Shown here piece after piece: positions 48,599 to 50,518 of a DNA stretch of 64,000 nt. The translations under genes were made by a program, and so were the position numbers. This DNA comes from Paecilomyces variotii (taxonomy: Eukaryota): assembly GCA_004022145.1 (NCBI GenBank), contig RCNU01000003.1. One strand, 5' to 3'. The notes under the pieces are model-generated. The model saw only the letters and a program-made list of their open reading frames with translations. It did no database searches and had not been told where the DNA came from. The first letter of the stretch is position 1. The number at the start of each line of letters is the position of its first letter.

Positions 48599-49197
48599 AT
48601 GATCCAGCTAAAGGTCAGAATGGGCTATTCCGCCCGGAAATATCGCGCGTGAAGCTGACGGGAGGCTAACACGGGTCCTGCAGACGATGCTCAATTGCAT
48701 CGACAACTCCGGTGCCGCAGTTGTCGAATGCGTGAACGTCCTCAAGAAGCACTCTCCTGCCACTATCGGTGCGTTGAAATGAAATCGAATGAGATACGGA
48801 AAGGAATTTACTGATGAATTCCTGCCCCAGGTGACCGCATCATCGTCGTCGTCCAGAAGCAGCGCAACTTCGGCCCGGAGAGCTCAACCAACAGCGGTAT
48901 CGCCAACAAGGTCCGAAGAGGAGACATCCGACACGCCGTCGTTGTCCGTGCTAAGAAGGAGGTTCAACGGCCCGATGGAAGCTTCATCAAGTTCGATGAC
49001 AACGCCTGCGTTCTGATCAACAAGTCAGGAGACCCGATCGGAACGAGATTGAACGGTACGTTGCGCCTTGCTCTTTTCCGGCACCTTACAGGATGTCGGT
49101 CTACAAGATACTGATCTGCGATACAGGTATTGTGGGAGCGGAGCTACGAGGCAAACAATGGTCCAAGATTTTGTCATTAGCACCTATGCATTTGTAA
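48599..49197 (+). CDS. mrpl38: Mitochondrial ribosomal protein uL14m (YmL38); 3 introns
   Basis: [16 protein letters not shown]..|[44 protein letters not shown]|..[12 protein letters not shown]. Confidence 0.92.
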
Positions 49198-49385
49198 ACT
49201 AGTATAAGAATCAATCAAGAAGTCCATCTCCAAATCAACGCTTCCTTATTTTTATTTGGCGCTCCCGAGCTATGCATAACGAGCTCGAACCATCAACAAT
49301 TTATCAATATCCCAACAATCGCCTAAAACTCCAAACAACCTCCTGAAACTATAACCGGGGTATCGATAACCGGAAAGGTCTGGTA

Positions 49386-50080
49386 TCATGTAAACACATT
49401 ACCGCAGGTGCAGCAGACATAGTAGAGTTTCTGTCCAACAACACATTAGAGCAGTCACAAGTATAGTCCACGCTGGGGGTGTCTTACCATTCCAGTCTCC
49501 GCAGATCGCTGTTGCGACTGGAAGAACACCGCCTCGTTTTCACCGCAGCTCGGGCAAAGCTTGTTCGACCGGGGCAGCTGTGGAGAGAAACAGCGTGTTA
49601 GCCATGAAAGAATGACAAGTTTTCCCTTAGGACTTTTGTGCATGTGGCCATTATGAAGACGCATCCGACTCCTCATAATCAGAGCTTTCCGTGTCTCCGC
49701 AAATGGAGCAGGTGAGTTCTTCACCGCAGTAGAGGCAGAGCTCAGGCACACCAACCGTAGGATCTGATGCGACATCCTGAGTCACACCAGCTGTGTCTCC
49801 CACTTGACTGTTCAGCTTGTTCTGGTAAACGCAGTACGAAGATGCAGGCTCGGCGACATGGCAGGTTCGGCAGGTAAACATCAGGCGGTTGTTGACACGG
49901 TCTTCCTTCGGGTAGAGCAAGTTGGAGCTGAAATGTATCCGTTAGCAAACTCGCTGATCGATACGGGTATACTGAGGTGCGCAGATCAGTTACTTACCAT
50001 TCGCGACAGAATCGAAAATGAATCTGATCGACGTTCTGCTTAGAGTCGCCACCGGTCGACGAGGCAGGACTGGCGGACAT
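49386..50080 (-). CDS. rpb9: RNA polymerase II subunit Rpb9; 3 introns (second at 49578-49755)
   Basis: FRFCREC|SNLLYPKED..CRTC..DPT|LPRSNKLCPSC..AVFFQSQQRSAETGM|KLYYVCCTC. Confidence 0.95.
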
Positions 50081-50518
50081 CTTGTGTGGTAGTGGTATTA
50101 ATCGGTGGGAACAGGAGTCTGAAAGATAGTTTTCGAGGTTATGTCCTATTCGGGTGTTTTGTTTGGGCTTTGTATCTCTCTTGAGAGCTGGCAGATCAAG
50201 AATACTGGATGTTCTTTAACGTTGTGGTCATCGATCGAGCAGCGCAGAAGTCTGAAGAGGCAAGCTAGACGCCGCAGACACTAGACCAAACTGGGCCGGA
50301 ACAGCGCACGGACCATCAGCCCTACCGCGGCAACGGCTGTCCCTCACTCCCCGCAGTTGGAATCAAGTTGAGATCGAGTACGATTTCCTCCCTTGCCGAG
50401 ACTTCTATGACCCTCCTTTGACTATAGACATCCTGAGATAGTCGCTACTATCATCCTTTCTTCGGTTTATACCAGATTCCTCTTCTTTATACCATCCTTC
50501 GTTGCGTATTCGCTCAAA

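Follow-up and report, generated by a model that had tools for sequence, protein, structure and literature searches.

A conserved open reading frame in intron 2 of rpb9 points to a second form of the RNA polymerase II subunit Rpb9 in filamentous ascomycetes

Introduction

Can an intron in the gene of a core subunit of RNA polymerase II (Pol II) hold the coding sequence for an alternative C-terminus of that subunit? The question is raised by the rpb9 gene in a stretch of 64,000 nucleotides (nt) from Paecilomyces variotii (contig RCNU01000003.1 of assembly GCA_004022145.1), which we call the window. Read in frame from the preceding exon, intron 2 of this gene encodes two closely spaced cysteine pairs, an acidic tail and a stop codon. 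A first-pass annotation made from the sequence of the window had suggested that retention of this intron would yield a variant Rpb9. We put the probability at roughly 80% that one rpb9 gene gives rise to two mRNAs, one for the canonical Rpb9 and one, with intron 2 retained, for an isoform with a functional alternative C-terminus.

Rpb9 influences start-site selection, fidelity and elongation. The excerpts available from two studies state that yeast Rpb9 defines a subpathway of transcription-coupled repair (PMC13451438) and that rpb9 of Schizosaccharomyces pombe has four introns, whose role is given as unknown (PMC13300194).

Results

Intron 2 of rpb9 contains an in-frame coding segment

The gene is rpb9, with both zinc ribbon families matched: PF02150 (Zn_ribbon_RPB9) is found in the open reading frame (ORF) of exon 2 alone with 26.8 bits against a cut-off of 25.2, and PF01096 (Zn_ribbon_TFIIS) in the ORF of exon 3 (E-values in Table 1). 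It lies on the minus strand, and the gene model was fixed by RNA contigs. At 178 nt intron 2 is unusually long for this locality, since the four other RNA-confirmed introns in 48700-50400 measure 62, 71, 57 and 70 nt, the 62-nt and 71-nt introns being those of the neighbouring gene. In-frame read-through of intron 2 gives 34 codons (VGVPELCLYCGEELTCSICGDTESSDYEESDASS) followed by TAA, the whole ORF occupying 49651..49941 with 96 amino acids. Spliced rpb9 encodes 129 residues and the retained-intron form 119. The first-pass annotation had described this intron as 178 nt long and longer than most introns in the window, with a GTTGGT donor directly after ..DVASDPT and an in-frame CxxC-x5-CxxC plus acidic tail ending in a stop at 49651. 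All of this holds: RNA contigs skip exactly that length, the donor is read in the sequence at 49755-49750 and the ORF translation agrees.

Exitrons are internal to a coding exon, have a length that is a multiple of 3 and contain no stop. With 178 nt and a TAA at 49653-49651, intron 2 was rejected as an exitron.

Spliced and retained forms are both present in RNA

Four RNA runs were compared (X1, X3, X4 and X10), and X3, X4 and X10, which come from three studies, are informative. X1 is continuous and genome-like across the locus, introns and intergenic DNA included, and says nothing on splicing; its strain is 95-99% alike, lacks 14 nt at window position 49952 in intron 1 and shows several differences nearby. 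The joint from 49577 to 49756 is found in contigs of all three informative runs. In X4, which is listed as 'RNA?', a 1,092-nt contig of depth 34.1 is spliced at all five local introns, and the entire intron 2 is found on another contig of 207 nt (49559-49765, depth 6.7). In X10 a 237-nt retained contig spanning 49549-49785 has a depth of 77 versus 74.8 for the spliced joint, and in X3 the retained contig of the same extent reaches 140.6 versus 31.2.

The four other introns lacked contig cover in 11 of 12 checks across these runs, the depth in their bins corresponding to the share of exonic bases. Genomic DNA is no explanation for the cover of intron 2, since all three runs show depth 0 over the intergenic stretch 50239-50400. 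Retained-intron RNA, which the first-pass annotation had proposed to look for, is thus seen together with the spliced form in three of three informative runs at the level of contigs, and both RNA forms of rpb9 exist.

The sole exception among the other introns is rpb9 intron 3 in X3, covered by a contig at 49402-49517 with a depth of 80.2; retention of intron 2, too, is highest in this run. Introns 2 and 3 retained on one molecule would leave no exon junction downstream of the intronic stop, and contigs cannot phase the two.

The frame is conserved in other fungi

A first search, whose query joined the intronic peptide to the end of exon 2, gave eight proteins from nine candidates. All eight read through ..DPT, and seven of them carry CxxC-x5-CxxC. 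Searching with exon 2 alone (residues 1-62), which gives a sample not biased towards carriers of the module, returned 138 proteins at E<=0.001, 120 of them listed, or 125 when the earlier matches are included. After DPT, 18 of these are canonical spliced models (LPR..), 81 are read-through proteins with CxxC-x5-CxxC (77 plain, four joined by the gene models onward to exon 3), 15 keep only the first CxxCG (12 plain, three joined to exon 3) and 11 show neither. Named records include many species of Aspergillus, Penicillium and Talaromyces as well as Onygenales. A record of P. variotii No. 5 has 119 amino acids and is 89% identical over the linker end and the intronic peptide and 90% identical over the whole ORF.

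We also scanned metagenome contigs with exon-2 peptide patterns and took the best 80 of 171 relatives: 79 have the DPT motif and 65 are unique, comprising 62 genomic loci and three spliced, cDNA-like sequences. At the 62 genomic loci the frame holds four cysteines in 40 cases, three (CxxCGx4C) in 18, CxxCG in three and none in one; the motif stands in another frame at a single locus. Intron 2 measures 159-747 nt at these loci (median 215.5). Its frame stays open for 21-167 codons after DPT (median 57.5; the two alternative frames have medians of 32.5 and 18), and the remainder from the stop to the acceptor has a median of 60.5 nt (52 loci). Intron 2 is long, then, because the coding segment is contained within it.

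A profile built from the ORFs of non-Eurotiomycetes found 1,185 proteins at E<=0.001; 120 were listed and 119 of these were new. Among the matches listed, all 119 new proteins are read-through forms (88 with four cysteines, 29 with three, two with two). The names include Lecanoromycetes (Lobaria, Xylographa, Gyalolechia and others), whose carriers are lichen-forming, Helotiales (Lachnellula, Rhynchosporium, Tricladium, Cudoniella) and Sclerophora. Conservation of the cysteine pattern and the frame in orthologous introns, another point raised by the first-pass annotation, thus extends to at least three classes (Eurotiomycetes, Lecanoromycetes and Leotiomycetes). The four cysteines and a glycine are invariant in alignments A1, A4 and A6.

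In Helotiales-type loci (L044, L050, L053, L055, L058, L060, L062, L064-L069, L072-L076, L079, L080; P0178-P0242 in part) the fourth cysteine is replaced, mostly by arginine. The tail of this type is less acidic and often ends in ..MQKL, and purifying selection is still seen in close pairs.

L033 and L042 have divergent but intact exons 3 and 4, so nothing indicates that the isoform has a gene of its own. No intron separates exons 1 and 2 (ITFRFCxECSNMLYPKED) at L047, L049, L059, L069, L070 and L077, and some lineages appear to have no intron 1 yet keep the coding intron 2. In L069, P0195 and P0197 exons 1 and 2 are fused with intron 2 present; these may be partly spliced Helotiales transcripts or come from intron-1-less genomes, and they were excluded from the RNA evidence.

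Selection acts on the encoded protein

The invariant residues are encoded by synonymous codons. Counts of TGT/TGC at cysteines 1 to 4 are 41/17, 44/14, 32/26 and 20/20, and the invariant glycine is written GGC 21, GGT 17, GGG 13 and GGA 7 times. Mean pairwise difference in the core is 0.41, 0.30 and 0.64 at the first, second and third codon position. The ratio of nonsynonymous to synonymous substitution rates (dN/dS) was calculated as a pooled Nei-Gojobori estimate from 18 independent pairs of related loci. Exon 2 has a value of 0.09, and both the complete read-through ORF and its tail past the module have 0.25. Reading the same alignments in the two shifted frames, as a control, yields 1.11 and 1.58, and the excess of synonymous changes in the true frame has a Fisher p of 1e-45. 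In the 11 closest pairs the read-through value falls to 0.15. A dN/dS below 1, as the first-pass annotation had proposed to look for, is thus found over the 18 pairs and over the 11 closest. Judged by these substitution patterns, conservation of the intronic frame acts at the protein level, and purifying selection on the protein has maintained the frame in several classes of Pezizomycotina.

Two other explanations of the conserved stretch were considered. One holds that the four-cysteine pattern is a chance product of an open frame in a long intron. We shuffled the intron 2 body 200,000 times by mononucleotides with the donor kept. Since 43,581 of these shuffles stayed open for at least 34 codons, an open frame alone is unremarkable, which speaks for chance. 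CxxC-x5-CxxC before the first stop, on the other hand, appeared in 0 of 200,000 shuffles, and the looser CxxC-x(2-20)-CxxC in 20; the first-pass annotation was right to call four paired cysteines improbable in random intron sequence. As the pattern also recurs in frame across many species, chance is already refuted by the conservation data and retains next to no probability.

The other explanation takes the stretch for an RNA or DNA element, such as an intronic small nucleolar RNA, a structured RNA or a splicing control element, in which the open frame is incidental. It would suit the length of the intron and the conservation of its 5' part. Against it, an Rfam scan of 49000-50400 found no family at E<=10, and the fold of intron 2 RNA is no more stable than that of shuffled sequences (energy z-score 0.01). 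An intron-hosted small nucleolar RNA or other known RNA was rejected on these grounds. Such an element would also have to accommodate variation that is highest at the third codon position and invariant residues encoded by synonymous codons, and we regard it as highly improbable. Together the Rfam, fold, codon-use and shuffle results exclude both the RNA-element and the chance reading.

Seven of the read-through proteins found with exon 2 are joined by their gene models to exon 3, which raises the possibility of an insertion isoform, with the module spliced to exon 3 from a further in-frame donor within intron 2 and the knuckle thereby set between linker and C-ribbon. Ten public gene models are built in this way (P0039, P0054, P0060, P0061, P0064, P0087, P0102, P0192, P0202 and P0214). 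These may, however, be products of gene prediction, which prefers open frames. In the window the only phase-0 GT before the stop is at position 7 of the intron (GTGCCT), the RNA contigs of the three runs show just the canonical joint and full retention, and purifying selection also acts on the acidic tail that lies past such donors. An insertion isoform is very unlikely on this evidence.

The intron 2 donor is conserved in a non-consensus form

Donors of intron 2 at the 62 loci are GTTGGT (27), GTGGGT (21), GTCAGT (5), GTTTGT (4), GTAGGT (4) and GTGAGT (1). They have G at +4 in 84% and a pyrimidine at +3 in 58%, and all of them carry G at +5 and T at +6. Introns 1 and 3 of these loci differ: G occupies +4 in 4-8%, and +3 is a pyrimidine in 0-12% and a purine in 89-100%. 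The intron 2 donor thus departs from the GTRAGT type of introns 1 and 3 at 61 of 62 loci. Its conservation in a non-consensus form fits inefficient or regulated splicing. The form could also be a consequence of a second role of these bases, as the codon pair for Val-Gly, Val-Cys or Val-Ser. In one lineage (P0245) an Ala follows DPT (DPTASALSPAPDFC..), which leaves the usual donor position without GT; the donor there is possibly of the GC type or shifted.

Retention of intron 2 might be purely regulatory and unproductive, with the weak donor and premature stop leading to decay, so that Rpb9 dosage is tuned and the peptide is functionless. The conserved non-consensus donor, the stop upstream of a further exon junction and the wide differences in retention between runs all agree with this, and the available part of PMC9118705 reports intron retention coupled to nonsense-mediated decay in filamentous fungi. 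Unexplained, however, would be invariant cysteines and glycine with synonymous codons, a dN/dS of 0.25 over the whole frame including the tail versus 1.1-1.6 in the shifted frames, and frames open for 21-167 codons past DPT at 62 loci. We consider a purely regulatory role unlikely. Regulation may nonetheless coexist with a functional protein, as the one does not preclude the other.

The module and tail match no Pfam family

A profile of the tail alone was searched against 1.84 billion representative proteins and gave 64 matches at E<=0.001: 56 linked to Rpb9 exon 2, five short ORFs starting at the module and three unrelated Cys-rich repeat proteins. The module seems to exist only in rpb9 intron 2. 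The tails that follow it are acidic: 97% of 207 carry a negative net charge, the median being -9 for a median length of 44 residues. Many lineages share a longer consensus, PDFCTxCGQEIxCExCG-x5-G-x-hydrophobic-LEV-x-D, the last part of which occurs in 40 of 214 four-cysteine tails and is lacking in the lineage of the window itself. It lies about five residues past the last cysteine, as in GFWLEVDDED (P0245-P0298; loci L031, L033, L036 and L052).

Pfam searches of 22 tails gave nothing significant (best DUF7349 with E 0.039 and zf-BED with 0.052, each in one of 22), and among the zinc-knuckle families none was significant either (best CLIP1_ZNF, E 0.085, in one of 22). In the ESM Atlas P0211 retrieved only 'Ascomycota' Rpb9 clusters, and the tail alone (P0003 residues 75-122) gave no usable match.

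With the C-terminal ribbons of TFIIS, Rpa12 and Rpc11 the module shares four cysteines in two CxxC knuckles on the C-terminal side of the same linker, and its first knuckle reads CxxCGE, as does CPSCGENE of exon 3. It differs in that just five residues part the knuckles, and it therefore lacks the beta-hairpin from which a ribbon is formed. A TFIIS-type zinc ribbon was rejected, as the intron-encoded tail has no PF01096 match and hhalign of the tail profile against canonical Rpb9 gave a probability of 1%. The same hhalign value, obtained for so short a segment, leaves an origin of the module by duplication of exons 3 and 4 unsupported. Retroviral-type zinc knuckles are of the CCHC kind, CX2CX4HX4C. 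The module is similar to them in size (13-14 residues) and in its two closely spaced ligand pairs, which makes a single zinc site sterically plausible; its putative ligands are CCCC and their spacing differs.

Features of the locus

The features of rpb9 are collected in Table 1. The gene and a convergent plus-strand neighbour overlap at their 3' ends (window 49127-49430). The neighbour matches Pfam Ribosomal_L14 (E 3.2e-23, window 48818-49054). Poly(A)-like loose ends place its end near 49233-49240 and that of rpb9 near 49152, and one X4 contig spans both genes.

Table 1. Features of rpb9 in the window, in order of transcription
Feature	Position	Strand	Evidence and remarks
Exon 1	49998..50080	-	ATG 50080-50078; 27 codons and the first two bases of a Cys codon; supplies the first CxxC; RNA joint 49927/49998 in X3, X4, X10
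Intron 1, 70 nt, donor GTAAGT	49928..49997	-	RNA joint; no covering contig in X3, X4, X10
Exon 2, remainder of N-terminal zinc ribbon and linker, end ..GVTQDVASDPT	49756..49927	-	PF02150, E 4.9e-6
Intron 2, 178 nt, spliced or retained	49578..49755	-	Joint 49577/49756 in X3, X4, X10; whole-intron contigs in each
Intron 2 donor GTTGGT, non-consensus	49750..49755	-	Sequence; would be read as Val-Gly on retention
Four-cysteine module CLYCGEELTCSIC, CxxC-x5-CxxC, read-through codons 7-19	49699..49737	-	Sequence; Cys and Gly invariant in relatives
Acidic tail GDTESSDYEESDASS, read-through codons 20-34	49654..49698	-	Sequence
TAA stop of the retained-intron frame	49651..49653	-	Sequence
Non-coding 3' part of intron 2	49578..49650	-	Sequence; CTAAC (49601-49597), presumably the branch site from general knowledge of fungal introns; pyrimidine run; CAG acceptor
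Exon 3 LPRSNKLCPSCGENEAVFFQSQQRSAETGM, first half of canonical TFIIS-like C-ribbon	49488..49577	-	PF01096, E 6.7e-10; RNA joints
Intron 3, 57 nt, donor GTAAGA	49431..49487	-	RNA joint 49430/49488; covering contig only in X3 (49402-49517)
Exon 4, coding part KLYYVCCTCGNVFT and TGA, second knuckle of C-ribbon (CCTCG)	49386..49430	-	Sequence; matches canonical proteins P0026, P0044, P0085

Discussion

Taken together with the RNA forms, the selected reading frame suggests that these fungi probably make a second form of Rpb9. Splicing of intron 2 gives the canonical protein, in which the linker connects the N-terminal ribbon (Zn1) to the TFIIS-like C-ribbon (Zn2). The conserved non-consensus donor would favour retention, and translation would then run from ..DPT into the intron, the product consisting of Zn1, linker, a 13-residue knuckle and a short, strongly acidic tail. 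We infer that this isoform is translated. It would enter Pol II through Zn1 and the linker, place a small zinc knuckle and an acidic, mostly disordered tail where Zn2 usually lies, and lose the Zn2-dependent activities. In yeast these include start-site choice, fidelity, contact to TFIIE and turnover of Rpb1 after damage. It is speculative that the tail might bind a basic partner or compete with nucleic acid at the polymerase jaw, both guesses from its composition and the location of Zn2, and that the ratio of the isoforms might respond to conditions through splicing efficiency. That a Rpb9 without Zn2 can act is suggested by yeast: as far as the consulted sections of PMC9638876 go, Zn1 contacts Rpb1, autophagy and ATG1 transcription are restored by residues 1-52 (Zn1 and linker), and neither needs Zn2, whose mutation has no effect there.

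The first-pass annotation had put it that the C-ribbon is swapped for a different zinc-binding module. As a statement about coding potential maintained by selection this is well supported by the comparisons among relatives; for the protein itself we infer it.

Several observations weigh against a functional isoform. The RNA evidence consists of assembled contigs only, and the depths quoted above are a poor measure of abundance. The retained contigs extend into the flanking exons by just 29-30 letters in X3 and X10 and 10-19 in X4, under the 31-letter bridging rule; such short overlaps would be expected from a side branch of an assembly graph built on 31-letter words. Since about 160 nt separate its stop from the exon 3/4 junction downstream, the retained mRNA may be subject to nonsense-mediated decay. 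The 80 of 171 loci were ranked by a query containing the tail and the non-Eurotiomycete profile included the module, so both samples lean towards carriers. Of the 125 proteins found with exon 2, the 11 lacking the module include some that are apparently frame-shifted. The module is not universal, the fourth cysteine being absent from the Helotiales form VGLPLCLLCGxVVMCEGR (18 of 62 loci, 29 of 119 proteins). Structure prediction was also modest. AlphaFold2 models of the full isoform from 26 sequences (P0001 as first row) had a mean predicted local distance difference test score (pLDDT) of 50.7 with the module below 50; with 145 sequences the mean rose to 63.4, with Zn1 at 80-86, the module at 60-66 and the last tail residues below 50. 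The four cysteines are putative zinc ligands, invariant in the alignments named above, the fourth missing in Helotiales, and modelled at that modest score.

Up to ..DPT the isoform is the same as canonical Rpb9 / POLR2I (PF02150 + PF01096) in gene, N-terminal ribbon and linker, and the spliced product is an ordinary Rpb9. The retained-intron product differs in having no TFIIS-like C-ribbon and instead a 13-residue CxxC-x5-CxxC with an acidic tail that matches nothing in Pfam. Alternative C-termini produced by splicing are known in fungi from the cryptic peroxisomal targeting signals of glycolytic enzymes. Here too one gene would give two proteins that differ C-terminally, with the splice choice conserved across species. 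The present case stands apart in that it concerns a core subunit of Pol II, in the conserved Cys4 module and acidic tail that would form the alternative end, and in its origin by retention of a whole intron with an internal stop. Another fungal example of such an alternative C-terminus is STE20/PAKA of Trichophyton, as described in the portion available of PMC6274995.

A full-text literature search, with subscription journals and supplementary tables outside its scope, found no description of such an Rpb9 isoform, and the consulted portions of PMC12692688, PMC13300194, PMC13451438 and PMC9638876 contain no mention of it. The subunit and the mechanism are known; the conserved alternative domain is undescribed. 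Public databases already hold these sequences as 'RPB9' models without a C-ribbon, and the intronic frame would explain an oddity of annotation, namely the dozens of public 'RPB9' models that have no C-ribbon or carry an insert.

A wider picture can be drawn tentatively and is rather doubtful as a whole. Since before their major classes diverged, filamentous ascomycetes might have had two kinds of Pol II that differ at the jaw, one with canonical Rpb9 and one whose Rpb9 has a minimal Cys4 knuckle in place of the TFIIS-like ribbon, with a strongly acidic tail anchored to it (carrying G-x-hydrophobic-LEV-x-D in many lineages). Their ratio would be set by splicing at a deliberately weak donor, switching the Zn2-dependent properties, and the tail would serve as a mimic of nucleic acid or a docking site for a basic partner. 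If the two-mRNA reading is true, splicing would control the composition of Pol II across a very broad set of fungi, among them Aspergillus, Penicillium, dermatophytes and lichen fungi.

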